From: a virus
Length of the DNA: 64,000 bases
Reading direction: 5' to 3' (one strand)
IMG/VR virus record: IMGVR_UViG_3300027244_000003
Shown in pieces: positions 2,806-50,020 of the stretch. Below the pieces are notes generated by a model, which was given only the letters and a program-made list of their open reading frames with translations, did no database searches and was not told the DNA's origin. Position numbers and translations under genes: made by a program. How positions within the stretch are numbered: position 1 is the first letter of the stretch; every line of letters begins with the position of its first letter.

Positions 2806-4107
2806 ATGGTAAAAGTTATCGTAGCAAAAGAAAAGTTTGATTGTTCAAAGTTAGAAGGAACATTCGTAGACGAATCTCATTATGATCATCTCATCGAAGA
2901 AGATACTGATGTTTACATGCCATCATCAATTGATGGTGGAGATCCTTACAGTGAGAAGCGTATTGTTCTAAAGTTTCGTAAGAACTACTTCACACAAGAG
3001 CAACAAGATCAAGCATATCTTGGTCTGAAAGATGCAGCAACTGAAACTCAGAACAGAGGTAAAGCAGCTGGACCACGTGGCGACAAATTGGGTAATCGTG
3101 AGTGGGTTACTGAGTATGAATATGCCATCTTAGAATACTTTGAAGAAGCAAAGGCTATGCTTGGTGAAGATCCAGTTGAACAGATTCGTCAGAAATATAA
3201 AAACGCTGTTCAGAAACCATCCACACGAAATAATGTTTGGGGTATCCAAGCAGTTAAGAAAGATGGTTTTGATTTCGAGAAGTGGGTTGAAGCGACAAGC
3301 AAACTATCAGATACAGAACAACATTACGAATCCCTGCGCATTCAAAAGAAATATGTTTGTCCAACAACTTATGCTAATGGAGTTCTTTCTGGCATTGCTG
3401 GTTGGTTCGATCGTTACCCACGTATCCCTTATGGTCGTGCTACTTCTTATACTGCAAATAACTTTGAAAAGTTTAAGATGTCATATCCATTCCTTCAGCA
3501 ACTATCTAAAGGATTTAAGGAATATCTTCCAGAGCGTTTTGCAGCGCAGATGTCTGCAGCAAACAAACTTGATTCAGCATTCTTAGTTCCTGAAACTCCA
3601 TTCACAACTATCACTGTTAACAATACATTTAGAACTGCTGCTCACTACGATGCAGGTGACTTGAATGAAGGTTTGTCGAATCTATTGACATTGTCTAATG
3701 ATGGTAAGTATACTGGTGGATATCTGATTGCTCCTGAGTATCGTGTTGCAGTTAATCCACGTCCAGGTGATTTGCTTCTTATCAACAATCACGAAGTTAT
3801 GCATGGTAATACTCCGATTGTTTGTCCAGAAGGTTCAGAGCGTATTAGTCTTGTTGTTTACTTCAGAGAAAAGATGCTCGAGTTGGGTAGCAAAGCATAT
3901 GAAGATGCACGCTATGAATATGTAGAGGGACGCAGGTTAAATAAAGAACACCCAGAACATAAAGATCGCCATCTTTGGAATGGTGTTACTGCAGGTATGT
4001 GGGATGAGAAAGAGTGGTATGACTTCTTGAGTGCTAAACAGGGTGGTGAAGATATGCTTGCTAAATATCATCCTACAACCAAAGGTGCTCTTGAGGAGTT
4101 TTTCTAA
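2806..4107 (+). CDS. TET/JBP-family 2OG-Fe(II) nucleobase dioxygenase
   Basis: RTAAHYDAGD (HxD), HEVMHGNTPI (distal His), RISLVVYFREKM (2OG-binding Arg), the TET/JBP-type motif set. Confidence 0.8.
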   Translation: MVKVIVAKEKFDCSKLEGTFVDESHYDHLIEEDTDVYMPSSIDGGDPYSEKRIVLKFRKNYFTQEQQDQAYLGLKDAATETQNRGKAAGPRGDKLGNREWVTEYEYAILEYFEEAKAMLGEDPVEQIRQKYKNAVQKPSTRNNVWGIQAVKKDGFDFEKWVEATSKLSDTEQHYESLRIQKKYVCPTTYANGVLSGIAGWFDRYPRIPYGRATSYTANNFEKFKMSYPFLQQLSKGFKEYLPERFAAQMSAANKLDSAFLVPETPFTTITVNNTFRTAAHYDAGDLNEGLSNLLTLSNDGKYTGGYLIAPEYRVAVNPRPGDLLLINNHEVMHGNTPIVCPEGSERISLVVYFREKMLELGSKAYEDARYEYVEGRRLNKEHPEHKDRHLWNGVTAGMWDEKEWYDFLSAKQGGEDMLAKYHPTTKGALEEFF

Positions 4108-4109
4108 TA

Positions 4110-4805
4110 ATGTGTTCCATAATTGGTGCTGTGTTAAAGAATCCTCGTCATGAGGATTTTGAAATGATTCGTAGAGTATTCCTTGAGTCTAAGATTCGAG
4201 GAATGCATGCGACAGGTATATCTTTTTTACCGCATTGGAGTAAGTCAGTTGTAACTATCAAAGAAGCAATGCCATCTGATAGATTTATTGATACTCATAT
4301 GCATATTGATAATATGAAGGAGATGGTTAATGACGATGGTACTCTTTACCTTATTGGTCACTGTAGATATAGCACTAGCGATTTATCTTATAATCAACCG
4401 CTAGCAAATGAATTGAAGTCCATTGTTCATAATGGAGTTATTACACAAGAACTTCCTGAGAACTGGGGTAACATTTATCCTTACACATTTGAAACTAAGA
4501 ATGACTCTGAGTTAGTATTACATTCAGATGACCCACTCAGAGAGTTCCCAGATGCATCTATGGCAGTGTGTGAACTTTATGTAGATCGTAAGTTGCGATT
4601 CTATCGTAATGGTAAACGTCCATTATACTTGACAAGTATTGAATGTGGGAGTATAATTACCTCTACGGCAGATGTTCCAAAACGTGCTGAGGTTGCAGGG
4701 TTTCCAGTTAATGTTCTTATGAATCATTACAATACATTTGATGGTGACCTTGCATTGACGATTGAGCGAGTTGATATTAAAGATGCATTAGATTACCAAA
4801 AATGA
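4110..4805 (+). CDS. Class II (Ntn) glutamine amidotransferase domain protein
   Basis: N-terminal Cys2 (MCSIIG), RGMHATG, GHCRYST, HNGVI, NDSE. Confidence 0.85.
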   Translation: MCSIIGAVLKNPRHEDFEMIRRVFLESKIRGMHATGISFLPHWSKSVVTIKEAMPSDRFIDTHMHIDNMKEMVNDDGTLYLIGHCRYSTSDLSYNQPLANELKSIVHNGVITQELPENWGNIYPYTFETKNDSELVLHSDDPLREFPDASMAVCELYVDRKLRFYRNGKRPLYLTSIECGSIITSTADVPKRAEVAGFPVNVLMNHYNTFDGDLALTIERVDIKDALDYQK

Positions 4806-5440
4806 TATTAGTTGATTTAGCAAAAGTAGAAAACATTATTTCAAATAGTCCAGCTGGTAAGAATACAAAATTCTTATCGGCTGCACATTCATTATGGTAT
4901 CGGTTTCACAATTATGACAAAGCATTACCAATGGCTTATGAAGTTAATGGTGATGTTGTTTGTTTAATCTTTGCTACATTCAATCGTGATGGTTATGCCA
5001 ACCTGTATGAGATCGTAACACTCGAAGGAAAAGAAGGAAATGGATACGCATCAAAGTGTTGGGACGCATGGATTAAATACGCAGTCGAAGAACGAAAGTC
5101 TAAACGACTTAAAATCTCTTGCACACCTTCTTCAGTCACATGGCATTATCGCAATGGACTCATCTTCTGGGCAGTTGACCCGACTGGCTCGTTACGTTCT
5201 GACCAACCATTATTCTCAACTAGGCAAGAGCAAATTAGCTACAGAAATAATGCTATTATCAATCCATCCTCTGCTCTGCCACCAAGCAAAGCACAAGATC
5301 AGTTTAGGTTAGAAGGATTAGAATTATATAAATGGGGTGACAAGAAGAAAGAAAAAACTCAAACAGCAATTGATGCAGTTGGTACAGCATGGCTACGAGA
5401 TGCTCTTATGAATCAACCAACACTACAAGAATTTTTATAA
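4802..5440 (+). CDS. GNAT-like acetyltransferase
   Basis: Motif A-like LYEIVTLEGKEGNGYAS; stop/start coupled within the modification cassette. Confidence 0.6.
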   Translation: MILVDLAKVENIISNSPAGKNTKFLSAAHSLWYRFHNYDKALPMAYEVNGDVVCLIFATFNRDGYANLYEIVTLEGKEGNGYASKCWDAWIKYAVEERKSKRLKISCTPSSVTWHYRNGLIFWAVDPTGSLRSDQPLFSTRQEQISYRNNAIINPSSALPPSKAQDQFRLEGLELYKWGDKKKEKTQTAIDAVGTAWLRDALMNQPTLQEFL

Positions 5441-6456
5441 TGGATTATCGTTTACAAGAAAATCGTAAAGAAGCATTCATACGCTGGTACGCATGGTCAT
5501 TGAAGTATGATGATTGTGATCCAGCAGTATGGGCAACGAACTATCTTAATAAAAGATATGAACACAATGATGAACAGCGTCTTTGGTTTGCATGGCTTTA
5601 TGGTAATACATACCAGTTGCAAACTGCATGGGTACTAATGAATGAGTTTCCTGATTATGAATTAGCAACAGTTGATAGAATCACTCAATGGAATACAGCT
5701 AACTATAAGAGACTACGATATCAAACTGATACAAAGTGGAACAAAGGACATCTTCCTGCCATGTTCGAGTCTTACCAAAAATTTATAGGAAGTGGAACAC
5801 AACGTGATAGGATGGAAAGTTTTTATGCATCATCAGAGGAAGACACTTTTGATAGACTGTGGGATGGGGTTAAGTCGAGCCTGCATAAATTTGGTCGTTA
5901 TTCCACTTGGTTTTACTTACAGCATCTTAAACATACTGCTGGCATCTCTGTTAATCCTACTTCTCTCATGCTGGACGATTATGATGGTTCCCGTAGTCAT
6001 CGTAATGGACTTCTGTATGCCCTTGGACAAGAATCCGATTGTGATCGAAGACTCAGTAATATGGAGTATTCAAACCTCGAAGTACATGCAAAAGAAATTC
6101 TGGAAGAAAGTAAAAGACGATTCCCTGACTTAGCAGGACAGATTGATTTCTTTACCATGGAAACCTGCTTGTGTTCTTTTAAGAAACTATTCAGAGAACA
6201 CCATGGACGTTACCTTGGTTACTATCTAGATCGTCAGGCTGAAGAGATTGTTAAAGCAGAGAATGATAGTTGGTATGGTATTGATTGGGATGTTCTTTGG
6301 CAAGCACGTGAAGAAACAATTGATTTTAGATTAGACCATAAACGTGGTATCGATAAAGAAAGGTTTTCTTCTTTCCTGAATTCAGGTAAATTAGAAAATT
6401 TAGAATGGATGTTTAATGATGAAGAATCTATACTAATTGGATTGGAGAATTTTTAA
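5440..6456 (+). CDS. alpha-glutamyl/putrescinyl-thymine pyrophosphorylase (aGPT-PPlase; amino acid/amine:DNA transferase) family protein
   Basis: HhH-like KFGRYSTWFYLQ and C-terminal ETCLCSFKK...GRYLGYY motifs; neighbours a kinase and TET/JBP. Confidence 0.75.
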   Translation: MDYRLQENRKEAFIRWYAWSLKYDDCDPAVWATNYLNKRYEHNDEQRLWFAWLYGNTYQLQTAWVLMNEFPDYELATVDRITQWNTANYKRLRYQTDTKWNKGHLPAMFESYQKFIGSGTQRDRMESFYASSEEDTFDRLWDGVKSSLHKFGRYSTWFYLQHLKHTAGISVNPTSLMLDDYDGSRSHRNGLLYALGQESDCDRRLSNMEYSNLEVHAKEILEESKRRFPDLAGQIDFFTMETCLCSFKKLFREHHGRYLGYYLDRQAEEIVKAENDSWYGIDWDVLWQAREETIDFRLDHKRGIDKERFSSFLNSGKLENLEWMFNDEESILIGLENF

Positions 6457-6899
6457 TGGCTATTAATAAACCACAGCCCAACTGGGGTGATAATATGATT
6501 GTGACTGGTACAGGTTTACAACCATTTTCAAATGGTGGGACTCTCAGTATCAATACTGCAATGAATACAGGCACTGTTGCAGCAAGTGGATCTTATACTA
6601 CAAATACCATAAGTGTACAAAAACCTGTAGATGAAGTTTTAGATCAATTTGATATGAATGAAGTTGTCGTTGAACATAAAGTTACAACATTTGAACTTGC
6701 CAAATTGAAAGAAACTGTAGACTACCACGACATCATTAAACAAAATTTGTCTAAGAAGATTTCTGAAAGTATAATTAACAAAGCAAGATTCACGAAGAAG
6801 CAAGATCTTGACTCAGATACTATATCTTTTCGTGGAAGAGTATGGGTATTTAATAAAGAAGAATTGATGGATTTAATAAAGGAAGTCAGAAATGTTTGA
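6456..6899 (+). CDS. hypothetical protein
   Basis: Coupled ORF within the cassette, no recognisable motif. Confidence 0.7.
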   Translation: MAINKPQPNWGDNMIVTGTGLQPFSNGGTLSINTAMNTGTVAASGSYTTNTISVQKPVDEVLDQFDMNEVVVEHKVTTFELAKLKETVDYHDIIKQNLSKKISESIINKARFTKKQDLDSDTISFRGRVWVFNKEELMDLIKEVRNV

Positions 6900-7494
6900 T
6901 AAATTTGGAGTAGTTGACGAGATTAGTGTTCAGTTGATTAGAAACCCCACTAAGACTAGAAAGATTATCGCAGTTGGTGGGCAACCTGGAACTGGTAAGA
7001 CTACACTGTTTCGTAAATTTATGGAAAATAAACAGTGGATTGTAGGTGAACCAGCCAAGTTGGTATCAGCATCCTATAATACCGAACGAGATCTATACAT
7101 CCTTGGTAAATATGATGAGGGTGAAACCTTTGCTGGAACAGATCGGCTTTCGATGGCAGTCCAACCAAACCTCCAAGAGTGGGTTAAGTCTAATAACTGC
7201 AATATCCTTTTCGAGGGAGATCGAGTCTTCAACCAGTCATTCCTAGAGTTTTGTATGGAGTTACCTAATACCGAATTGCAAGTGGTCTATTTGGCAGTCC
7301 CGAAACCTATGTTAGAACAGAGATACAAAAATAGGGGTTCTGACCAGTCTGAAACTTTCCTAAAGGGTCGGGAGACTAAATATAGTAATCTATTGTCAAA
7401 CTTTGACTTGATGCCTTATATTACTGAGTTTGTAAACACTAACTTAGAGGAGCAGGGGAAAGTACTTGCGCACTTGGAGAAACAGTTTAGTTAA
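6892..7494 (+). CDS. P-loop nucleotide/DNA kinase of base-modification cassettes
   Basis: GGQPGTGKTT, GTDRLSM, FEGDR, RGS lid. Confidence 0.75.
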   Translation: MFDKFGVVDEISVQLIRNPTKTRKIIAVGGQPGTGKTTLFRKFMENKQWIVGEPAKLVSASYNTERDLYILGKYDEGETFAGTDRLSMAVQPNLQEWVKSNNCNILFEGDRVFNQSFLEFCMELPNTELQVVYLAVPKPMLEQRYKNRGSDQSETFLKGRETKYSNLLSNFDLMPYITEFVNTNLEEQGKVLAHLEKQFS

Positions 7495-7514: not shown

Positions 7515-8210
7515 ATGAACTTCCTAGAAAAAGCCAATTACGACTGGATGGAACTGCTCAACTTTTATGAGCGTCCATTCAGAGCTAAACTCACACCCTC
7601 AAAAGTCTGGATTGATCTAGATCGTTATAAGAACGATTCTGTCGGTCTTGCCAACTATGCTAAGAAGTGGCGCACCAAAGTCGAATGGCGTAAGGAAAAG
7701 TCTAAAGCAAAGTGGACTGAAACCTATGTAGGAATTGGTGGTGAATATGCTCCAGATGAGAGACAGATAACCATACAAATCTATACTGATAGGTTCAATT
7801 CATTCTCCTTTACAAATAAGTCTTGGACAGCATTTAAGATGAGATTTATTCAAACTCTCATGCACGAATTGATACACTTCATGCAGTACGAGAGAAGAGA
7901 TGACTCATGGAGTAACTACGTTGTACCATATAAAAAGGTGGGTATAGCAAAGAAGGATGAACAGAGAGCATACCTCTCTGAGTTTGATGAGATACAAGCA
8001 TATGCGCATTGTGTGTATCTAGATTTTAAGATGCGTAGACCCAGAGTAGAAATCAACATCCTGTTGAATCGTTATAAAAAGAAACGAGATTCGTCTACTC
8101 TTCACTTCTTCTTAAAGACGTTTGATTACGATTTAAGAAACAACATGGCCACTCGAAAGATCATAGATCAAATCGGTAAATGGGATCGTAAATACAACCG
8201 AATGACTTGA
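7515..8210 (+). CDS. HExxH zincin-like hypothetical protein
   Basis: HELIHFMQ followed by YL..DEIQAYA. Confidence 0.55.
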   Translation: MNFLEKANYDWMELLNFYERPFRAKLTPSKVWIDLDRYKNDSVGLANYAKKWRTKVEWRKEKSKAKWTETYVGIGGEYAPDERQITIQIYTDRFNSFSFTNKSWTAFKMRFIQTLMHELIHFMQYERRDDSWSNYVVPYKKVGIAKKDEQRAYLSEFDEIQAYAHCVYLDFKMRRPRVEINILLNRYKKKRDSSTLHFFLKTFDYDLRNNMATRKIIDQIGKWDRKYNRMT

Positions 8211-9626: not shown

Positions 9627-9634
9627 TATAAATA
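9627..9634 (+). promoter_or_regulatory. T4-type late promoter (gp55)
   Basis: Exact TATAAATA 27 nt upstream of the ORF at 9662. Confidence 0.75.
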
Positions 9635-19013: not shown

Positions 19014-20045
19014 ATGCTCTATATTGACAACAAATATGCACAAATCCTTGGCGGTCGTCTAAGGAACTTCACAAAGAAGAAAGACTATCTCTGGAACTTT
19101 TCATGTCCAGTGTGCGGAGATAGTTCAACCAACAAACTAAAAGCACGTGGTTACATCTTTCGTGCCAAAGCAGATCTTTTCGTAAAATGTCACAACTGTG
19201 GTTACAGTACCAATCTCGGTAACTTAATCAAGTATGTCGATACTAAGTTATATGATGAATATGTTCTTGAACGCTACAAAGGTGGCGCAACAAGATACAA
19301 TGATCACAAAGACATTGCTGATACCAGTGTCACTCTAGAAACTCCCACAGAAGATTTACTCGAAGATGATATCTTATCATCTCTCTCAAGAATTGATAAA
19401 CTACCACTGACACACCCAGCAGTTAAGTATGTTATCGAACGAAAGATTCCACGTGAAAACTGGAGTCTTTTGTACTTTGCTCCGAAGTTTAAAGCATTCA
19501 CCAATTCAGTGACTGCTAAATTCCAAGAGCCAATTAAGGATGAACATCCTCGTATGATCATTCCTTTCTTTACACCAGCAGGTAAGTGTTTTGCTTTTCA
19601 AGGCAGAGCATACGGTAAAGAAGAACCTAAGTATTATACCATTAAGGTTGATGAAACACAGGAGAAAATTTATGGACTCGATCGCTTGGATTATAGCAAA
19701 CGCATTTACGTGGTCGAAGGACCAATTGACTCGCTTTTCATACCGAATTGTGTGGCTGTGTCAGGAAGCAGTTTTGATACCCCTACTATCAGGCAGTTAC
19801 TTACTAATGCAACTTTAATAATGGATAATGAGCCAAGAAGTAAAGAGATTGTAAAACTTCTTGACAAAAATATAAAGGCAGGTTATTCTGTTTGTATGTT
19901 TCCAGAACATATCCAACAAAAAGATATAAATGATATATTTTTACATAGCGGAATGACCATAGATGAGATTTTAGAGACGATAAATACAAATACCTTCACA
20001 GGTATTGAAGCGAGTCTTAAATTTAGTACATGGAAAAAAATATGA
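19014..20045 (+). CDS. 61: gp61 DNA primase
   Basis: CPVCGDS...CHNC zinc finger; TOPRIM VEGPIDSLF, DNEPR, KDIND. Confidence 0.95.
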   Translation: MLYIDNKYAQILGGRLRNFTKKKDYLWNFSCPVCGDSSTNKLKARGYIFRAKADLFVKCHNCGYSTNLGNLIKYVDTKLYDEYVLERYKGGATRYNDHKDIADTSVTLETPTEDLLEDDILSSLSRIDKLPLTHPAVKYVIERKIPRENWSLLYFAPKFKAFTNSVTAKFQEPIKDEHPRMIIPFFTPAGKCFAFQGRAYGKEEPKYYTIKVDETQEKIYGLDRLDYSKRIYVVEGPIDSLFIPNCVAVSGSSFDTPTIRQLLTNATLIMDNEPRSKEIVKLLDKNIKAGYSVCMFPEHIQQKDINDIFLHSGMTIDEILETINTNTFTGIEASLKFSTWKKI

Positions 20046-20710
20046 ATGTTAGAATGATTAGTTATAGTAAACCCTCTCGAGAGATGTATGATGAGGGTTT
20101 GTTAGATGTACAGGAGTTGGTTGCGTTCTGTGCACGTGTGAGCAATCCAAGTAACCAATTCAACACAGAGACATCAGAGAAGTTAATTAAGTATTTAATT
20201 AAACATCAACACTGGTCACCACTAGAGATGGTTAGTGCATGTTTAGAAATTGAAACTACTCGTGATATAGCAAGACAAATGCTACGTCATCGATCTTTCT
20301 CTTTCCAAGAATTTAGCCAACGATATGCAGATCCAACCAAAGACTTATCTTTCGTTCTTAGAGAAGCCCGACTCCAAGATACGAAGAATCGTCAAAATAG
20401 CGTTGAGAATAATAATCTAGCATTGGCTGCATGGTGGGAAGAAAGGCAGAAGCGAGTTATTGAAGAAGCAAGAAATGCTTATGACTGGGCAATTACCAAC
20501 GGTATTGCCAAAGAACAAGCAAGAGCAGTACTACCAGAAGGACTGACTGTTTCTCGTTTGTACATGAATGGTACGTTGCGTAGCTGGATTCATTTTATCG
20601 AACTCCGATCTGCAAATGGTACACAAAAAGAACACCAAGAAGTCGCACGTGAGTGCGCAAAGGTAATTGCTGAGGTATTTCCTCTAGCAAATGAATTAGT
20701 AAAACTATAA
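20042..20710 (+). CDS. thyX: Flavin-dependent thymidylate synthase
   Basis: RHRSFSFQEFSQRY ThyX motif, HWSPLE. Confidence 0.95.
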   Translation: MNVRMISYSKPSREMYDEGLLDVQELVAFCARVSNPSNQFNTETSEKLIKYLIKHQHWSPLEMVSACLEIETTRDIARQMLRHRSFSFQEFSQRYADPTKDLSFVLREARLQDTKNRQNSVENNNLALAAWWEERQKRVIEEARNAYDWAITNGIAKEQARAVLPEGLTVSRLYMNGTLRSWIHFIELRSANGTQKEHQEVARECAKVIAEVFPLANELVKL

Positions 20711-45100: not shown

Positions 45101-45174
45101 TCCCGAGTGGTGTAGTGGTAGCACAGCAGACTTTGACTCTGCTAGTATAAGTTCGATTCTTATTTCGGGTGCCA
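45101..45174 (+). tRNA. tRNA-Gln(TTG)
   Basis: Cloverleaf, GCAGA-CTTTGAC-TCTGC, CCA. Confidence 0.9.
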
Positions 45175-45266
45175 AACAAAAACACATTGATCATCTAATT
45201 GGTCAGGATGGTGTTCGTAAGGCATTAAATGTAGGTTCGAATCCTACTCAATGTGTTTTTGTTTGG
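45172..45266 (+). ncRNA. tRNA-like element with a 19-bp extended acceptor helix and no CCA
   Basis: D arm and T arm GTAGG-TTCGAAT-CCTAC; weak anticodon arm with loop TCGTAAG; perfect 19-bp terminal inverted repeat. Confidence 0.6.
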
Positions 45267-45275
45267 TAAGTTTTT

Positions 45276-45349
45276 GGGGGTATAACTTAGTGGTAAAGTA
45301 GTAGGCTTTTAACCTATTAACCAGAGTTCAATTCTCTGTGCCCCTACCA
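45276..45349 (+). tRNA. tRNA-Lys(TTT)
   Basis: GTAGG-CTTTTAA-CCTAT, CCA. Confidence 0.9.
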
Positions 45350-45354
45350 ATTAT

Positions 45355-45429
45355 GGTGTCGTTAGTTTAGTGGTAAAACTACGGGTTGTGATTCCGTCAT
45401 CATGAGTTCAATTCTCATACGATACCCCA
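45355..45429 (+). tRNA. tRNA-His(GTG)
   Basis: ACGGG-TTGTGAT-TCCGT, G-1/C73, CCA. Confidence 0.9.
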
Positions 45430-45437
45430 ATTTTTAT

Positions 45438-45513
45438 GCCGAGATAGCTCAGTTGGTAGAGCACTTGTTTGAAGCACAAGGTGTGGGCGGTTCGATCCCG
45501 TCTCTCGGTACCA
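45438..45513 (+). tRNA. tRNA-Phe(GAA)
   Basis: CTTGT-TTGAAGC-ACAAG, CCA. Confidence 0.9.
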
Positions 45514-45518
45514 GTTAT

Positions 45519-45593
45519 TCCCGATTAGCTCAGAGGTAGAGCAATCGCTTGATAAGCGATAGGCGAGTGGATCGTTACCACTATCGGGAACCA
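45519..45593 (+). tRNA. tRNA-Ile(GAT)
   Basis: ATCGC-TTGATAA-GCGAT; atypical T loop ATCGTTA; CCA. Confidence 0.85.
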
Positions 45594-45599
45594 AGTTTC

Positions 45600-45673
45600 G
45601 CCCTATTAGTATAATGGCATTACACCTGTTTTGTAATCAGGTTACGGCAGTTCGATTCTGTCATGGGGCACCA
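45600..45673 (+). tRNA. tRNA-Thr(TGT)
   Basis: CCTGT-TTTGTAA-TCAGG, CCA. Confidence 0.9.
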
Positions 45674-45681
45674 AGTTTTTA

Positions 45682-45755
45682 CTCCGATTGGTGAAATGGT
45701 ATCACTCATGGTTTGGGACCATGGAGCGCAAGTTCGATTCTTGCATCGGAGACCA
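45682..45755 (+). tRNA. tRNA-Pro(TGG)
   Basis: CATGG-TTTGGGA-CCATG, CCA. Confidence 0.9.
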
Positions 45756-45762
45756 AAGTTTT

Positions 45763-45837
45763 GCATCGTTAGCTCAGTGGTAGAGCGTCTCGTTTACACC
45801 GAGAGGGTCGGCAGTTCGAAACTGTCACGATGTACCA
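45763..45837 (+). tRNA. tRNA-Val(TAC)
   Basis: TCTCG-TTTACAC-CGAGA, CCA. Confidence 0.9.
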
Positions 45838-45843
45838 AGTTAA

Positions 45844-45935
45844 GGAAGATAATGCAGCGGGGTTGGTCCTGCGACCAGCCTTGAAAACTGGGTTCTGAGA
45901 AATCGGATGGGGTTCGACTCCTCTGTCTTCCGCCA
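45844..45935 (+). tRNA. tRNA-Ser(TGA)
   Basis: Loop CTTGAAA, long variable arm, GCCA. Confidence 0.85.
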
Positions 45936-45941
45936 GATTAT

Positions 45942-46016
45942 GCGTCTTTAGTAAAATGAATATTACACATCGCTACGAACGATGAAGTGGGAGTTTGATT
46001 CTCTCAGGACGCACCA
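45942..46016 (+). tRNA. tRNA-Arg(ACG)
   Basis: CATCG-CTACGAA-CGATG, CCA. Confidence 0.85.
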
Positions 46017-46023
46017 AGAGTTA

Positions 46024-46113
46024 GGAAGATGGGCAGGACGGTAATGCAGCAGTTTGCTAAACTGTAGATTATAGGAATATGGTCACAGGGTTCGACTCCC
46101 TGATCTTCCACCA
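46024..46113 (+). tRNA. tRNA-Ser(GCT)
   Basis: GCAGT-TTGCTAA-ACTGT, long variable arm, CCA. Confidence 0.85.
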
Positions 46114-46119
46114 GAGTTT

Positions 46120-46196
46120 GCGGATATGATGGAATTGGTATACATATCAGACTTAAAATCTGAGTTCTCCGAGTTCGACTCTCGGTATCCGCACCA
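46120..46196 (+). tRNA. tRNA-Leu(TAA)
   Basis: TCAGA-CTTAAAA-TCTGA; short variable region; CCA. Confidence 0.85.
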
Positions 46197-46203
46197 AGTT
46201 TAT

Positions 46204-46278
46204 ACGGCATTAGTATAATGGATAATACAGTAGGCTTCTACCCTACGAATGTGGGTTCGATTCCTGCATGCCGTACCA
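46204..46278 (+). tRNA. tRNA-Arg(TCT)
   Basis: GTAGG-CTTCTAC-CCTAC, CCA. Confidence 0.9.
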
Positions 46279-46284
46279 GAGTTT

Positions 46285-46359
46285 GGGCAGGTAGCTTAAT
46301 GGTAAAGCAGTGAACTCATAATTCATTGAGTCTGTGTTCAATTCACAGTCTGCCCACCA
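46285..46359 (+). tRNA. tRNA-CAT (probably Ile2, possibly Met)
   Basis: GTGAA-CTCATAA-TTCAT; GGGC acceptor; CCA. Confidence 0.8.
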
Positions 46360-46362
46360 AGT

Positions 46363-46467
46363 TTTGTAGTCATAGCCTGGAGCTAGGGTAAGGGGTGTTG
46401 CGGAACCACAGCGTGGCGTTAAATATCGAGGCGCAACTTAATCAGATTGTGTTCGACCTGCTACAAA
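46363..46467 (+). ncRNA. Unassigned structured RNA
   Basis: Terminal stem TTTGTAGT/GCTACAAA, GC-rich interior, no ORF. Confidence 0.4.
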
Positions 46468-46475
46468 TTCATTAT

Positions 46476-46553
46476 GCCCCGATGGACAAATTGGCAAAGT
46501 CGTCTCTCTCAAAAGGAGAAATGTTGTGAGTTCAAATCTCACTCGGGGTACCA
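46476..46553 (+). tRNA. tRNA-Leu(CAA)
   Basis: TCTCT-CTCAAAA-GGAGA; short variable region; CCA. Confidence 0.85.
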
Positions 46554-46559
46554 AGTTAT

Positions 46560-46633
46560 GTAGGTGGAGCCAGTTGGACAGGCACTGGATTGCAAACCCA
46601 TGGAAGTGAGTTCGATTCTCACCATCTACTCCA
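46560..46633 (+). tRNA. tRNA-Cys(GCA)
   Basis: Loop TTGCAAA, U73, CCA; weak anticodon stem. Confidence 0.8.
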
Positions 46634-46659
46634 AAGTTGCAAGTTAGTTAAAATACTTG

Positions 46660-46688
46660 TTGACACCAATGCCTAGATGGTGTATAAT
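46660..46688 (+). promoter_or_regulatory. Consensus sigma70 promoter inside the tRNA array
   Basis: TTGACA-17-TATAAT. Confidence 0.8.
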
Positions 46689-46835
46689 ATAGTCTAGTTG
46701 GTTAGGAATTCAAAAGTCCCTTCTGAGTCTTTGTTGCGAAACAAAGCGTAGGGCAAAGTGGTCTGAATGTTGCAACTCGCTTACATTCTCCCACTCAGTG
46801 CTTTGATAGTTTCCACTTCAAGAAACTATCACCAT

Positions 46836-46910
46836 GCTCGGTTCGTCTATCGGTTAGGACACTGCCCTTTCACGGCAGGAAGAGGGGTTCGATTCCCCTA
46901 CCGAGTACCA
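46836..46910 (+). tRNA. tRNA-Glu(TTC)
   Basis: CTGCC-CTTTCAC-GGCAG, CCA. Confidence 0.9.
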
Positions 46911-46911
46911 G

Positions 46912-47132
46912 ATTTAATTGTATTGGGTTGCCAATACCAGTAGGTGATTTATGCAGAGAACTAAATCCTAGTGACGGCTAGGCTCTGCTGAGTTACACGA
47001 AACCTTGAGATCATATCAGGAGGACGCTGGATAAAGTTGGAACGTAATGTGGTTGACAAACAAGTCCATGGACGGCATGGTAGGGCAGGTTCAAAACTGT
47101 TATTTTTGTCAAACATCCCAGTATAATTAAAT
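46912..47132 (+). ncRNA. Unassigned structured RNA (~220 nt)
   Basis: 16-bp terminal helix ATTTAATTGTATTGGG/CCCAGTATAATTAAAT with G-U pairs; internal hairpins. Confidence 0.55.
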
Positions 47133-47133
47133 G

Positions 47134-47288
47134 TGGTATTAGTTTAGTATTATCAAGGTATCGTGTATGGACGCATGCACTACTCGACAGTTAGGGTGCG
47201 ACTGACACTGTCTGATATAACTGCCACTCGCTCGCCAGAGGAAGCACCTTTATTGGCAAATGGGCACGATAATACTAAACTAATATCA
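47134..47288 (+). ncRNA. Unassigned structured RNA (~155 nt)
   Basis: 21-bp terminal helix TGGTATTAGTTTAGTATTATC/GATAATACTAAACTAATATCA. Confidence 0.55.
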
Positions 47289-47289
47289 T

Positions 47290-47382
47290 GGAGCAATTGA
47301 TGCTATGGCGTGTGCATCCTCAGACTGTAAATCTGATCCCTCTGGGTAAACAATCTTGGTTCGACTCCAAGTTGCTCCACCA
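47290..47382 (+). tRNA. tRNA-Tyr(GTA)
   Basis: TCAGA-CTGTAAA-TCTGA, long variable arm, CCA. Confidence 0.85.
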
Positions 47383-47581
47383 GTTCTCGTTACTACTTTC
47401 GTTAAAGTAGCGTTTGACTAGCGATAGAGGTTCGGTGGCAGAAAACCGTAAGCGAGGTGAAAACCCTCAGACTCTGATAGGCAGAATCTCAACTGCACAC
47501 AGACTAAAGAATAAATGGAGATGGACAGAGTAACTGCTCGATTAGGGGCTGGGTTGGAAACCAGTAGCCTATACTTATTTT

Positions 47582-47656
47582 GGCTCGTTCGTATAATGGT
47601 CATTACGTCGGATTGTCTATCCGATCACGGGAGTTCGATTCTCCCACGAGTCGCCA
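47582..47656 (+). tRNA. tRNA-Asp(GTC)
   Basis: TCGGA-TTGTCTA-TCCGA, GCCA. Confidence 0.9.
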
Positions 47657-47747
47657 GTTTTGTGGTAAGGAAAGTAAAAGGAGAATGGGCAACGAATAGG
47701 GGTTTGAACCCTGAGTAGTAGATACCTCACCTGCCACAAATTAGTTT

Positions 47748-47863
47748 TGTAAATGCTGTTTACAGCAACCGAGTTACAAGTTTAGAGTTGAGGCTCTAAT
47801 ATCGAAAGATAATTAGTTCACTAATACCGTGTTACAAGTGAAGGGTTGAGGCTCTTCTTTACA
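47748..47863 (+). ncRNA. Structured RNA with two covarying repeat modules
   Basis: ACCGNGTTACAAGT-[6-bp stem, TTGAGG loop] twice, at 47768-99 and 47826-57. Confidence 0.55.
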
Positions 47864-47875
47864 TATTTTTATTAT

Positions 47876-47950
47876 TCCAGTGTAGCACAGCGGTAGTGCA
47901 GTTGACTGTTAATCAATTGGTCGTAGGTTCGATCCCTGCCACTGGAGCCA
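47876..47950 (+). tRNA. tRNA-Asn(GTT)
   Basis: GTTGA-CTGTTAA-TCAAT, GCCA. Confidence 0.9.
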
Positions 47951-47985
47951 GTTTTTGTTGTTTGTTATTATTTGAAAGGTTTGAT

Positions 47986-48573
47986 ATGGAAATGATTAAT
48001 CTACGCAAAGCAAATGCGTTGCAAAGCGAGATCCGTAAAGCGATCTCTAGTTCTGGTGTTAGCGATACTGCTACCATCACTGAGTACACCAAAGATATTG
48101 CTGGTGGTCTTGAGAAAGCAATGGCAGATTATGCCACTGATGTTACTCGTAAGGTAGCATTGAACACTGCGTTGTTTAACATTCGTAAAAGTGTTGCTCA
48201 AGCAAATGCCAACAATGGTATTAGCGATATCCTCGCTGATGTTGAGTTGATCGATGCCAAGATCACAGTTTATAGCGCAGTTGCTACCAAAGCAGTTGCC
48301 AAAACTCTTGATGAGATCAATGCTCGTATCGAGAAGATGAAAACTGCACCAACTGATGCTACTGGTCGCAGTGCTATCTATGGCGATCGTTACAACACAG
48401 TGGAAACATCTGTTGTTGAGCAAAGCACTATTGATGCTGCCAAACAAATCGTAAAGCAATTGAAGCGTGAGAAACAAACTCTTCAAGATAAGTTGTTGGC
48501 TCTGAATGTCAACAGCATGATTGGTATCGATAATGTTGACGAGATGGTATTGAAGATAGAAGGTATTCTGTAA
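47986..48573 (+). CDS. Helical coiled-coil protein within the tRNA array (DIP1984/DUF6847-like, tentative)
   Basis: GAAAGG SD then ATG 47986; INLRKANALQ...LKREKQTLQDKLLALN. Confidence 0.7.
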   Translation: MEMINLRKANALQSEIRKAISSSGVSDTATITEYTKDIAGGLEKAMADYATDVTRKVALNTALFNIRKSVAQANANNGISDILADVELIDAKITVYSAVATKAVAKTLDEINARIEKMKTAPTDATGRSAIYGDRYNTVETSVVEQSTIDAAKQIVKQLKREKQTLQDKLLALNVNSMIGIDNVDEMVLKIEGIL

Positions 48574-48579
48574 AGTTTA

Positions 48580-48831
48580 GAGGGACAATGCGAATACGAG
48601 AGCAGATGGATAGTTGCAAAAACTAATATCCTACAAAGATATTGGATCAGGTCTTGAAAACCCTATTCCGAACATCGTGCCCAAACTTATAGTGTTATGC
48701 TCCACGTTTATACTTGACTGTTATAGTCGCTGCTTGTTGCTACGTGGATAAACTCTTGTGGGCTGTTTTTTGAATGTTGCGTGTTGCATATTGCATCGCG
48801 ACTATTCGCTTGAATTGAAACATTGTTCCTC
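48580..48831 (+). ncRNA. Unassigned structured RNA (~250 nt) directly after the coiled-coil gene
   Basis: Terminal helix GAGGGACAATG/CATTGTTCCTC, then GCGAATA/TATTCGC; heptamer repeats TGTTGCG-TGTTGCA-TATTGCA. Confidence 0.55.
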
Positions 48832-48853
48832 GCCTTATTATAAGTAGTTCTGT

Positions 48854-48929
48854 TGCGGGAAGGGTCTGGTCACCAGCGAGGTCTCATAAGCCTTTGCCAT
48901 CCTTGGTTCGAATCCAAGTCCCGCTACCA
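48854..48929 (+). tRNA. tRNA-CAT, probably initiator fMet
   Basis: Loop CTCATAA, unpaired 1:72, GCGGG acceptor, shortened D arm, CCA. Confidence 0.7.
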
Positions 48930-48933
48930 AAAT

Positions 48934-49010
48934 GCCCCGATGACGGAATTGGTATACGTGTTGGTCTTAGAAGCCAAATTTTGCGAGTTCGAGTCTCGCT
49001 TGGGGCACCA
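48934..49010 (+). tRNA. tRNA-Leu(TAG)
   Basis: TTGGT-CTTAGAA-GCCAA; short variable region; CCA. Confidence 0.85.
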
Positions 49011-49016
49011 AATTTC

Positions 49017-49091
49017 GGTGATGTAGCACAACGGTAGTGCAACTCCTTCATACGGAGTAGGTTAGTGGCTCGATTCCACTCATCACCACCA
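49017..49091 (+). tRNA. tRNA-Met(CAT), probably elongator
   Basis: ACTCC-TTCATAC-GGAGT, CCA. Confidence 0.8.
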
Positions 49092-49108
49092 CATAAGTAG
49101 TTAAGTTC

Positions 49109-49182
49109 GGGGGATTAGTATAATGGGATTACGGCAGCTTTGCAAGCTGTTTATGAGAGTTCGATTCTCTCATCCTCCACCA
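49109..49182 (+). tRNA. tRNA-Ala(TGC)
   Basis: GCAGC-TTTGCAA-GCTGT, G3:U70, CCA. Confidence 0.9.
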
Positions 49183-49186
49183 ATGT

Positions 49187-49260
49187 ATCTCGATGGTGTA
49201 ATGGCAGCATAGCAGTCTCCAAAACTGTTGGTTGGGGTTCGAGTCCCTATCGGGATGCCA
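49187..49260 (+). tRNA. tRNA-Trp(CCA)
   Basis: GCAGT-CTCCAAA-ACTGT, GCCA. Confidence 0.9.
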
Positions 49261-49267
49261 AGTTTTT

Positions 49268-49341
49268 GCAGGGTTAGTTTAATGGTAAAACAGCAGATTT
49301 CCAATCTTCGGTTGAGAGTTCGATTCTCTCACTCTGCTCCA
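49268..49341 (+). tRNA. tRNA-Gly(TCC)
   Basis: Loop TTTCCAA, U73, CCA. Confidence 0.9.
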
Positions 49342-49372
49342 AGTTTTTAATGAGGTAAGAAAAGAGGTAGTT

Positions 49373-49846
49373 ATGCGTAAAGCAATCAACATAGATGAAG
49401 TCAGAGATTTCATCTTGGCACAGACTCCAGAAACCAAGATCTATATTGGTGGTGACTCTGAAAGATTCTTAATAGGAAAAGATTGGTACGCAGATTACAT
49501 TATGGTTGTTGTTGTTCACATCAATGGAAACAATGGCTGTAAGATTTTTGGTGAAGTACAACGTGAACGTGACTGGGATAAGAAACGAGACAAGCCACGT
49601 ATGCGTTTAATGAACGAAGTTTATAAAATTGCAGAGTTGTATCTAAAGTTGCATGATATATTAGAAGATCGTGAAGTGCAAGTTCATCTGGACATCAATC
49701 CAAATGAAATGCATGGTTCTTCTTGTGTTATCAATGAAGCAGTTGGTTACATCAAAGGTATGTGTAACGTAGTACCAATGGTAAAGCCAAGAGCATTTGC
49801 TGCTTCATACGCTGCAGATAGATATAAGTCGTACATGGCTGCATAG
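49373..49846 (+). CDS. RNase H-like YkuK/DUF458 family protein
   Basis: IYIGGDS, RLMNEV, VHLDIN, VKP.AFAASYAADR. Confidence 0.8.
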   Translation: MRKAINIDEVRDFILAQTPETKIYIGGDSERFLIGKDWYADYIMVVVVHINGNNGCKIFGEVQRERDWDKKRDKPRMRLMNEVYKIAELYLKLHDILEDREVQVHLDINPNEMHGSSCVINEAVGYIKGMCNVVPMVKPRAFAASYAADRYKSYMAA

Positions 49847-49847
49847 T

Positions 49848-49922
49848 GCAGGATTAATTCAGTGGTAGAATGTCACGTTGCCAACGTGAATGTCATCGGT
49901 TCGAATCCGATATCCTGCTCCA
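49848..49922 (+). tRNA. tRNA-Gly(GCC)
   Basis: TCACG-TTGCCAA-CGTGA, U73, CCA. Confidence 0.9.
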
Positions 49923-49944
49923 AGAGCACATAAGTAGTTATATC

Positions 49945-50020
49945 GCCCTCATAGCTCATTTGGTAGAGCATCTGTTTAGTAATCAGAAGGTGGTCAGTTC
50001 GAAACCGACTGAGGGCACCA
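49945..50020 (+). tRNA. tRNA-Thr(AGT)
   Basis: TCTGT-TTAGTAA-TCAGA; GCC acceptor like the Thr(TGT) copy; CCA. Confidence 0.8.

Follow-up and report, generated by a model that had tools for sequence, protein, structure and literature searches.

A T4-like phage gene cassette linking a Tet/JBP dioxygenase to a predicted glutaminase-transferase complex, with a candidate role in thymidine hypermodification

The 64,000-nucleotide stretch of viral DNA analysed here (the window) encodes a six-gene cassette that may specify a post-replicative thymidine hypermodification pathway comprising oxidation, phosphorylation, glutamine-derived amination and acylation, a reading to which we give an even chance of being correct. 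The source virus is a T4-like freshwater phage, a myovirus with a genome of ~160 kb. The identities of the genes, their intact motifs, their synteny, the lack of alternative sources of 5hmU or 5mC, and a predicted interface between the cassette's glutaminase and its DNA transferase are demonstrated computationally. We suggest more tentatively, at slightly less than even confidence, that these last two proteins form a two-subunit glutamine:5-phosphomethyl-dU-DNA amidotransferase, with 5-aminomethyl-dU serving as a platform for interchangeable caps and an ~85-aa insertion in the dioxygenase taking the place of a ParB protein. The features are as follows.

2806-7494, + strand: six-gene cassette, same-strand ORFs directly 3' of the gp41 helicase gene
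2806..4107, + strand: Tet/JBP-family 5-methylpyrimidine dioxygenase (5mYOX), 433 aa (PF12851)
4110..4805, + strand: stand-alone class II (Ntn) glutamine amidotransferase (GATase), 231 aa (PF13522)
4802..5440, + strand: acyltransferase-like protein with GNAT fold (Foldseek), 212 aa; basic C-terminal extension conserved
5440..6456, + strand: amino acid:DNA transferase (AADT, formerly aGPT-Pplase2) homologue, 338 aa (PF18724)
6456..6899, + strand: 147-aa protein whose N-terminus is variable and rich in Gly/Ser/Thr and whose C-terminal domain (~90 aa) is conserved
6892..7494, + strand: P-loop kinase of the 5-hmdU DNA kinase type, 200 aa (PF18751)
7515..8210, + strand: 231-aa protein with HExxH, of uncertain membership in the pathway, flanking every cassette version

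The first-pass annotation described six tightly coupled genes after the gp41 helicase, and the ORFs and their junctions bear this out. The helicase and dioxygenase genes are separated by 8 nt, and the dioxygenase and GATase genes by 2 nt. The GATase and GNAT genes overlap by 4 nt (4802/4805), the GNAT and AADT genes by 1 nt at 5440 (TAATG), the AADT and 147-aa genes by 1 nt at 6456, and the 147-aa and kinase genes by 8 nt (6892/6899). The six genes are translationally coupled. No + strand terminator was found within the cassette, which is located amid replication genes, and the first late-type TATAAATA lies downstream of it at 9627, a layout consistent with the cassette being expressed early or in the middle phase alongside the replication genes. 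The window also holds 27 tRNA genes.

The order helicase, dioxygenase, GATase, GNAT, AADT, 147-aa protein, kinase recurs in 33 of the 43 related IMG/VR contigs that span the whole cassette interval, at protein identities of 40-85%, and this recurrence exceeds chance. Each of the five cassette enzymes has intact catalytic motifs, with catalytic residues that do not vary in many diverged relatives. GATase, AADT and kinase always co-occur among the related contigs. In five other relatives, the GNAT and 147-aa pair is replaced by an Amidoligase_2 and a LMW phosphatase, which points to a constant amine-making core (GATase, AADT, kinase) and a variable capping enzyme. The 7515..8210 protein adjoins all three cassette types, and its HExxH (M116-H117-E118-x-x-H121) is invariant in an alignment of 15 homologues; its only leads are weak and SprT-like (Pfam E 0.16; Atlas 0.85).

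Every gene identity proposed in the first pass was upheld, by Pfam matches or, for the GNAT, by a Foldseek fold match. The dioxygenase matches Tet_JBP (PF12851) over residues 220-355 with 82.2 bits against a cut-off of 34.9 (E 3.2e-23) and PHROG 24024 at 9e-155. Its HxD...H iron triad (H280, D282, H333) and the 2-oxoglutarate-binding R346 are invariant in 22 homologues, cultured phages included. In phages, Tet/JBP enzymes have been proven to act as dioxygenases on T after replication, and their genes are linked to those for GATase, kinase and AADT (PMC13229309); the present enzyme is predicted to hydroxylate thymine in DNA, yielding 5-hmdU.

Thymine is also the likely substrate by elimination. 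The first-pass annotation had noted an ordinary ThyX and no hydroxymethylase; ThyX is indeed encoded at 20030-20710, a dCMP deaminase is present in the window, and among the 90 window ORFs (25 of 28 matched families listed) no ThyA-family (hydroxymethylase-type) protein, C5-methyltransferase (PF00145) or ParB was detected at E<=1e-5. It had recommended a check of the rest of the genome for a methyltransferase or hydroxymethylase; in a complete 161.7-kb relative, no ThyA-family protein, C5-methyltransferase or ParB_N was found. Four related records, that complete genome included, have no match to the ParB activator (PF02195). Compared with the ParB-linked HTVC112P gp18, the dioxygenase has an extra ~85 aa (residues ~97-185) and a C-terminal extension. 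In one E. coli screen, clade C1 enzymes without ParB reportedly showed no activity (PMC13229309), and it is therefore not certain that this dioxygenase would work unaided.

The kinase matches Ploopntkinase3 (PF18751) with 37.4 bits against a cut-off of 27 (E 2.4e-9) and has GQPGTGKT as its Walker A motif. Its homology to PaMx11 gp49, which has been proven to be a 5-hmdU DNA kinase, is detectable (BLASTP E 3e-6, 24% identity over 161 aa), and the kinase matches PHROG 800, whose 'terminase small subunit' label gp49 also bears.

The AADT matches ADDT (PF18724) with 76.1 bits against a cut-off of 26.2 (E 4.4e-21) and PHROG 3271 at 5e-54, and all 120 of its database relatives among the matches listed carry PF18724. 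The longest ORF would begin at 5389, a start we reject; in relatives the 17 codons it would add are interrupted by stops and the protein measures 338-339 aa, so the true start is the ATG at 5440, as first annotated. Its E241-T242-x-x-C245-x-x-K248 motif (locally E241-T242-C243-L244-C245) corresponds to the metal ligands E243/T244 and catalytic Cys247 of PaMx11 gp46, and E241, C245 and K248 are invariant across seven distant AADTs, gp46 included. Earlier work established the chemistry of the kinase and AADT as well as the Cys-C6 mechanism (PMC8989533, PMC11472151), and this AADT is predicted to exchange the phosphate of 5-PmdU for nitrogen. Its nucleophile is not readable from the sequence. MAFFT places Y154 and F158 at amino-acid-binding positions of gp46 (W146, K150, D24), in a comparison with gp46 that is not significant by profile, and the glycine-binding residues W146 and K150 of gp46 have no confident alignment to this AADT.

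The GATase matches GATase_6 (PF13522) with 30.2 bits against a cut-off of 27 (E 5e-7) and is without a fused acceptor (synthase) domain. The sequence starts MC, placing Cys2 at the N-terminal nucleophile position, and the NCBIfam asn_synth and purF N-terminal matches begin at residue 2. All 26 homologues retain C2 together with R30-G31, R86/T89, N108-G109 and D132, which cover the Arg, Asn-Gly and Asp of the class II glutamine site. Structure prediction of a GATase-AADT complex gave ipSAE values of 0.90, 0.92 and 0.91, against 0.00 for the best of three controls; the ipSAE mark is reached by 58 of 80 solved complexes and by 2 of 110 mismatched pairs. The runs share at least 97% of contacts, with partner pLDDT of at least 91. 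These scores express the model's confidence, from alignments built for this analysis, and are no proof of binding. The predicted interface comprises the catalytic face of the GATase (residues 1, 28-33, 87-89 and 109-115) and three invariant segments of the AADT (39-46, 67-83 and 279-285), the last of which aligns, at low identity, to a gp46 stretch with the pocket residues K261/D262. The GATase is thus modelled as an ammonia donor docked on the AADT, and this placement of its catalytic face favours glutamine-dependent amination to 5-aminomethyl-dU. Ammonia from glutamine was one of two options in the first-pass annotation, and the controlled prediction lends it support.

Alternatively, the same route to 5-PmdU could end with the AADT installing a free amino acid or amine, as in M6, ViI, SP10 and PhiW-14, and with the GATase and GNAT as tailoring enzymes. 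The Ntn enzyme would then trim a gamma-glutamyl-type adduct (EgtC-like) or amidate a carboxylate, and the GNAT would acetylate the remaining amine. We consider this unlikely, though a serious contender. Every characterised AADT uses amino acids or polyamines (PMC8989533; PMC13458397), and the Gln-binding residues of the GATase would equally suit a gamma-glutamyl amide substrate. Further, the nearest cultured-phage GATase homologues (in PaP3-like phages, phiM6 and StenR_269) adjoin Amidoligase_2, ATP-grasp and GGCT genes, not AADTs, in clusters handling gamma-glutamyl-type chemistry, and the sister cassette itself pairs the GATase with Amidoligase_2; the ancestral partner of the GATase may therefore have been an amidoligase instead of an AADT. 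However, in the predicted interface the AADT covers the catalytic face of the GATase, an arrangement suited to ammonia transfer but not to reaching a base in duplex DNA. The window's cassette also lacks an ATP-dependent ligase able to amidate a carboxylate using ammonia, and what stays constant between cassettes is the core of GATase, AADT and kinase, the variation falling on the putative tailoring enzymes.

The 4802..5440 protein scores 18.9 bits against GNAT (PF00583), below the cut-off of 20.7 (E 0.0019), and a profile search against the PDB reached a GNAT at E 0.69. Its AF2 model has a pLDDT of 54.6 overall and ~70 for residues 1-110. Foldseek returned at least 361 matches at E<=0.001, all those listed being GNAT or related N-acetyltransferases; the best in the PDB are SpeG and RimI-like proteins (E 3.9e-6; TM by target up to 0.65). 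The GNAT assignment accordingly draws on a sub-threshold Pfam match and a model of that pLDDT. A motif-A-like KEGNGYASK is conserved, and this is the best-conserved protein of the cassette (78-85% identity). It is predicted to N-acylate the newly made amine. The 147-aa protein is found only with the GNAT version of the cassette and has no Pfam, PHROG or Atlas match. Its C-terminal domain is conserved in 22 homologues; its AF2 model is poor (pLDDT 53), with a top structural Z of 3.6.

From these data we infer each chemical step of the following scheme, together with its nucleophile, acyl group and biological role. The Tet/JBP dioxygenase (Fe(II), 2-oxoglutarate, O2), apparently acting without a ParB activator, would form 5-hmdU in phage DNA by adding a hydroxyl to the methyl group of selected thymines, and the P-loop kinase would phosphorylate the new hydroxyl to form 5-PmdU. 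Cys245 of the AADT would then attack C6, expelling the phosphate, and the exocyclic methylene would be captured by ammonia to form 5-aminomethyl-dU. By PurF-like logic, this ammonia would come from glutamine via the Ntn glutaminase, whose active site would face the AADT to which it is bound. The GNAT-fold protein would acylate the primary amine, most simply from acetyl-CoA, giving 5-acetamidomethyl-dU; in sister phages, Amidoligase_2 would cap it using ATP and a free acid. DNA modified in this way would presumably resist host nucleases. If correct, amination of a base within polymeric DNA by an amidotransferase would here have its first known case, and the GNAT and 147-aa or Amidoligase_2 and phosphatase modules would diversify the product into a family of N-acyl-aminomethyl-uracils across T4-like phages that are abundant in fresh water.

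It is improbable that the dioxygenase is inactive alone or stops at 5-hmdU (or 5-fdU) and that the downstream genes act on tRNA or a small molecule. This would accord with the inactivity of ParB-less clade C1 enzymes in the earlier screen, with the 27 tRNA genes in the window and with the chemical resemblance of Nalpha-GlyT to tRNA cmnm5U, but it sits poorly with the invariant catalytic residues of the five enzymes, with the location of the cassette among replication genes, and with the action of AADTs and this kinase family on duplex DNA in every tested case. Less credible still, and very improbable, is oxidation of 5-methylcytosine instead of thymine to build a cytosine hypermodification: clade A and B phage Tet enzymes oxidise 5mC and Burke 2021 also raised kinase-linked 5hmC routes (PMC8256090), but neither the complete relative genome nor the window ORFs include a C5-methyltransferase, among cultured homologues with a known partner the nearest is the ParB-linked HTVC112P enzyme, of T-dioxygenase type, and all characterisation of the kinase and AADT families concerns 5-hmdU.

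The proposed sequence of Tet/JBP conversion of T to 5hmU, phosphorylation, AADT-type substitution and acylation, already outlined in the first-pass annotation, agrees with the published cluster scheme (PMC8989533, PMC13229309). The novelty implied there was overstated, as Tet/JBP clusters with GATase, kinase and AADT were described by Lee 2021 (PMC8989533) and O'Toole 2026 (PMC13229309), and 5-acetamidomethyl-dU is a known PaMx11 product. Neither study gave the GATase a function. New here are the controlled prediction of a GATase-AADT complex, in which the modelled catalytic face lies on the AADT, and the variation of the acylating module among relatives (GNAT versus Amidoligase_2 and phosphatase). 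As in the clade C1 metavirome clusters (PMC13229309; PMC8989533 Fig. 2 sequences 22-25), a Tet/JBP dioxygenase replaces the dUMP hydroxymethylase and adjoins GATase, P-loop kinase and AADT genes, and thymine is the predicted substrate since no C5-MT is nearby. Unlike those clusters, neither the cassette nor the complete relative genome has a ParB activator, the dioxygenase carries the ~85-aa insertion and C-terminal extension, a GNAT and a 147-aa protein are added, and the virus is a T4-like myovirus of ~160 kb.

PaMx11 makes 5-AcNmdU using the AADT gp46, the amine-unmasking FAD lyase gp47, the acetyltransferase gp48 and the kinase gp49. The cassette shares this four-part logic of kinase, AADT, free-aminomethyl-yielding enzyme and GNAT-type acetyltransferase, with a homologous kinase and a common ETxxC catalytic motif in the AADT, although the GNATs and AADTs of the two systems are not alignable by profile comparison. 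In PaMx11, 5-hmdU arises pre-replicatively from a dUMP hydroxymethylase, whereas here a dioxygenase is present; and the PaMx11 amine results from glycine transfer followed by FAD-dependent cleavage, whereas here a glutaminase stands in place of the FAD enzyme. Counterparts of the PaMx11 dUMP hydroxymethylase and FAD-dependent glycinyl-thymine lyase were not found: no ThyA-family protein was detected among the window ORFs or in the complete relative, and the cassette has no FAD enzyme.

Mycobacteriophages such as Prince have a ParB, thymidine hydroxylase, 'DNA glycosylase' (AADT) and 'adenylate kinase' block that likewise combines dioxygenase, AADT and kinase, and their AADT is 25% identical to this one over nearly its full length. 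That block includes ParB, is without GATase and GNAT, and lies at the genome end, adjoining terminase. The phage Amidoligase_2 clusters (PaP3-like, phiM6, StenR_269) hold the nearest cultured-phage GATase homologues at 25-29% identity and resemble the sister cassette in pairing GATase with Amidoligase_2, but their GAT domain is fused in a longer protein and they have no dioxygenase, AADT or kinase. Phage clusters of Amidoligase_2, GAT-II, ATP-grasp and GGCT genes were reportedly described by Iyer et al. in 2009. Finally, the GATase shares with PurF (glutamine PRPP amidotransferase) an Ntn glutaminase with Cys1, Arg, Asn-Gly and Asp, and in both the channelled ammonia, as proposed here, would displace a phosphate-type leaving group on carbon. 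Where PurF has a fused PRTase domain, the cassette would use a separate HhH-type transferase subunit to hold the acceptor, a base in polymeric DNA.

The window derives from a T4-like myovirus encoding UvsX, a gp41-type helicase, RNR, ThyX, a dCMP deaminase, RNase H, and 27 tRNAs, the last forming a + strand array (45101-50020) that covers most amino acids. The helicases of freshwater Synechococcus phages and of Methylophilales phage Melnitz are ~65% identical to this one. The cassette DNA had no match among 50,697 phage records; no cultured phage is alike at the DNA level. Directly 3' of the helicase gene lie six + strand genes with overlapping or almost abutting junctions, confirming the arrangement described in the first-pass annotation:

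2806-4107, + strand, Tet/JBP dioxygenase (433 aa; above the Pfam curated cut-off)
4110-4805, + strand, class II glutamine amidotransferase, GATase (231 aa; above the Pfam curated cut-off)
4802-5440, + strand, GNAT-like protein (212 aa; below the Pfam cut-off, assigned from an AF2 model and Foldseek)
5440-6456, + strand, amino acid:DNA transferase, AADT, formerly aGPT-Pplase2 (above the Pfam curated cut-off)
6456-6899, + strand, 147-aa protein (no recognisable family)
6892-7494, + strand, P-loop kinase (200 aa; above the Pfam curated cut-off)

Four of the five enzyme assignments thus pass Pfam curated cut-offs, among them the Tet/JBP, AADT, and P-loop kinase families for which profile searches had been suggested; the GNAT is the exception. 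The AADT start was placed at 5440 from a TAATG overlap with the preceding gene; the ATG farther upstream that opens the longest ORF was ruled out, as relatives carry stop codons in that stretch. Scans for sigma-70 promoter-like sites and terminators did not exceed shuffled expectation. One perfect TTGACA-17-TATAAT lies at 4629-4657, within the GATase gene and 5' of the GNAT gene.

Residues H280, D282, H333, and R346 of the dioxygenase are invariant across 22 aligned homologues. PDB searches with the dioxygenase, GATase, or AADT, run both by single sequence and by profile, returned nothing useful, and the solved AADT of phage PaMx11, gp46, was not reached. With ThyX (20030-20710) and dCMP deaminase encoded in the window, the phage makes ordinary dTMP. 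ThyX is also present in a complete relative (161.7 kb, with terminal repeats and a cassette ~70% identical), in which no ThyA-family enzyme, C5-methyltransferase, or ParB_N domain was found. Likewise, no ThyA-family enzyme, C5-methyltransferase, or ParB was detected at E<=1e-5 among the window's 90 other ORFs (for one search, among the matches listed, 25 of 28 families). The first-pass reading of an ordinary ThyX without a hydroxymethylase therefore holds for the window, and the search for a C5 methyltransferase or dNMP hydroxymethylase elsewhere was negative in the complete relative and the window ORFs, from which genome-wide absence is judged. On this gene content, 5-hydroxymethyl-dU (5-hmdU) would not be supplied by the nucleotide pool and 5mC would have no source; the substrate is likely thymine in DNA.

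The same searches revealed no detectable ParB in the dioxygenase's lineage (window ORFs at E<=1e-5 and the complete 161.7-kb relative). Among cultured relatives whose partner is visible, the closest is gp18 of Pelagibacter phage HTVC112P (302 aa, 45% identical), encoded directly 3' of a ParB-like gene. Aligned with gp18, the T4-like dioxygenases are longer by an internal insertion (~85 residues) and a C-terminal tail (~70 residues). A fused ParB in the N-terminal 220 aa was considered and rejected: Pfam is blank there and this N-terminus aligns with that of the HTVC112P dioxygenase, the extra length being the internal insertion and the tail. ParB dependence is lost when a dependent enzyme receives the variable insertion of a ParB-independent one (O'Toole et al. 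2026, PMC13229309), which makes it plausible, by analogy, that the T4-like dioxygenase is self-sufficient. Such enzymes, natural relatives of a ParB-linked dioxygenase but themselves ParB-less, could help probe how the activator is bypassed. The cultured, T4-like Caulobacter phage Cr30 encodes a homologous dioxygenase (L002:10027-11256, 46% identity) and, 1.7 kb 3' of it, an AADT-like gene (28% identity). Their annotations go no further than 'SNF2 DNA repair protein' and 'hypothetical protein'. For Tet/JBP-started hypermodification, Cr30 could serve as a culturable model. Iron-handling genes share the window with this Fe(II) dioxygenase: within 7515-40125 are genes for NifU_N, a pair of Fe-S_biosyn (IscA-like) proteins, and a ferritin-like protein. 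A family 2 glycosyltransferase and additional 2OG-Fe(II) oxygenases are encoded there too.

The kinase carries a Walker A motif and is similar (E 3e-6) to PaMx11 gp49, for which 5-hmdU DNA kinase activity has been proven biochemically. The AADT contains the motif E241-T242-x-x-C245-x-x-K248, of which E241, C245, and K248 do not vary among seven very distant AADTs. E241, T242, and C245 correspond to residues of gp46 whose roles are known from crystal structures: Glu243 and Thr244 bind metal and Cys247 attacks C6 (PMC11472151). Profile comparison of the AADT with gp46 was not significant. A hand alignment of the AADT DxDP motif and W157/Q161 with gp46 D22/D24 and W146/K150 was dropped because MAFFT did not reproduce it.

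The GATase starts Met-Cys, and its class II glutamine-site residues (R30/G31, R86/T89, N108/G109, and D132) are invariant in 26 homologues, which together with the Pfam result upholds the identity first proposed. Predicted complexes of the GATase and AADT scored 0.90, 0.92, and 0.91, the best of three controls scoring 0.00; of solved complexes, 58 of 80 attained the mark for such scores, as did 2 of 110 mismatched pairs, counts that are rough because our own alignments were used. The runs share at least 97% of contacts, with partner pLDDT of at least 91. No like complex has been solved, so the prediction is unlikely to echo a known structure. On the GATase side the predicted interface comprises residue 1, 28-33, 87-89, and 109-115, the catalytic face, an orientation like that in amidotransferases fused to the acceptor domain that receives their ammonia. 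On the AADT side it comprises the invariant segments 39-46, 67-83, and 279-285. The last of these aligns, tentatively given 20% identity, with the gp46 stretch holding Lys261 and Asp262, which line a pocket beside the C5 methyl group (PMC11472151). The GATase is thus predicted to bind the AADT with its catalytic face inward.

The GNAT-like protein falls short of the Pfam cut-off (18.9 versus 20.7 bits). Its predicted fold supports the first-pass GNAT assignment: an AF2 model of modest confidence gave at least 361 Foldseek matches at E<=0.001, those listed all being GNAT-type N-acetyltransferases, and a motif-A-like KEGNGYASK is conserved. Profile comparison with the PaMx11 acetyltransferase gp48 was not significant.

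A protein-guided scan of IMG/VR found dioxygenase relatives on 343 contigs. Eighty loci were fetched, of which 43 span the entire interval to the next conserved gene. GATase-GNAT-AADT-147aa-kinase occurs in 33 of these 43 and GATase-Amidoligase_2-LMW phosphatase-AADT-kinase in five; another five of the 43 carry an unrelated pair of unknown proteins without GATase, AADT, or kinase, one with a SulP-like permease. GATase, AADT, and kinase therefore travel together, while the GNAT and 147-aa pair is exchangeable with amidoligase and phosphatase. In the sister cassette (L016:11299-14916; also L013-L015 and L018), Amidoligase_2 (PF12224) and LMW phosphatase (PF01451) replace the GNAT and 147-aa genes between GATase and AADT. 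The third module (L060:11679-13562; L068:3563-6112) consists of proteins of ~335 and ~150 aa between the dioxygenase and the HExxH gene, with a SulP-family permease-like gene added in L068, and may represent a different fate for 5-hmdU. The cassette lineage is abundant in metagenomes: at E<=1e-10 the AADT matches upwards of 1,400 database clusters (90% identity), the best 120 listed being 78-96% identical and several of these lying on 145-175 kb contigs.

In the fully covered loci the 147-aa protein accompanies only the GNAT version of the cassette. Its N-terminus is hypervariable and rich in Gly, Ser, and Thr, and its C-terminal ~90 residues form a conserved domain. Pfam, PHROG, and Atlas searches found nothing, NCBIfam gave only a YmfL match far below cut-off, and the best structural match of a poor AF2 model had Z 3.6. 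The HExxH gene (7515-8210, 231 aa) directly follows all three cassette types, including those without AADT and kinase. Its product has an invariant, zincin-like M-H-E-x-x-H-x-M-Q and weak SprT-like leads; a putative role as a DNA-protein crosslink protease is conceivable.

We propose as the most likely mechanism that the dioxygenase converts T to 5-hmdU and the kinase forms 5-phosphomethyl-dU. Cys245 of the AADT would then form an adduct at C6, expelling phosphate, and ammonia from the docked glutaminase would attack the exocyclic methylene to give 5-aminomethyl-dU. The GNAT would finally cap the amine as N-acyl-aminomethyl-dU, acetyl being the simplest option; in the sister cassette Amidoligase_2 would do so. 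This scheme would explain the constant GATase, AADT, and kinase core and the variable acylating enzyme, and the first-pass interpretation of hydroxylation, phosphorylation, glutaminase-fed amination, and N-acylation is supported as far as computation goes.

In the main rival reading, the AADT would instead attach an entire amino acid, and the Ntn enzyme would trim or amidate the adduct. Every characterised AADT uses amino acids or polyamines, and the AADT nucleophile site is not readable from sequence. In addition, the nearest cultured-phage GATase homologues (PaP3, phiM6, and StenR_269) are N-terminal domains of longer proteins in Amidoligase_2, ATP-grasp, and gamma-glutamyl cyclotransferase clusters adjoining replication genes. 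In the phiM6 cluster a Peptidase_C26 gene adjoins the GAT-II gene; the window likewise encodes one class I GATase/Peptidase_C26 (gamma-glutamyl hydrolase-like) protein, within 40101-63835.

Thymidine hypermodifications decide whether phage DNA is cut by restriction enzymes, CRISPR nucleases, and other defences, and there is demand for the enzymes as tools to derivatise DNA at specific sites and to sequence modified bases. For the GATases and amidoligases that earlier surveys repeatedly recorded beside AADT and kinase genes but left unexplained, the cassette offers a concrete proposal: glutamine-derived ammonia as nucleophile, followed by swappable N-acylation.

On metavirome contigs described by Lee et al. 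2021, a Tet/JBP gene stands in for dUMP hydroxymethylase beside kinase and aGPT-Pplase2 genes; amidoligase and glutaminotransferase genes were also noted and left unexplained (PMC8989533). Phage Tet/JBP enzymes have been proven to be post-replicative T-dioxygenases; in the ParB-associated clade C1, some members of which lack ParB, linkage to GATases, P-loop kinases, and AADTs is consistent (O'Toole et al. 2026, PMC13229309). Mycobacteriophage Prince is annotated with ParB, thymidine hydroxylase, 'DNA glycosylase' (an AADT), and kinase in succession. In PaMx11, glycine is transferred, FAD-dependent cleavage then leaves 5-aminomethyl-dU, and acetylation of this yields 5-acetamidomethyl-dU (PMC8989533). 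Systems of this kind, and one candidate product, were therefore already known; the literature gives no GATase role and no product of any Tet/JBP-started pathway. To this are added a lineage without detectable ParB and the predicted GATase-AADT docking. The proposed AADT-GATase step resembles that of PurF, in which ammonia displaces pyrophosphate, with phosphate as the leaving group, and the cassette would mirror the four-part logic of PaMx11 with a glutaminase in place of the FAD lyase.
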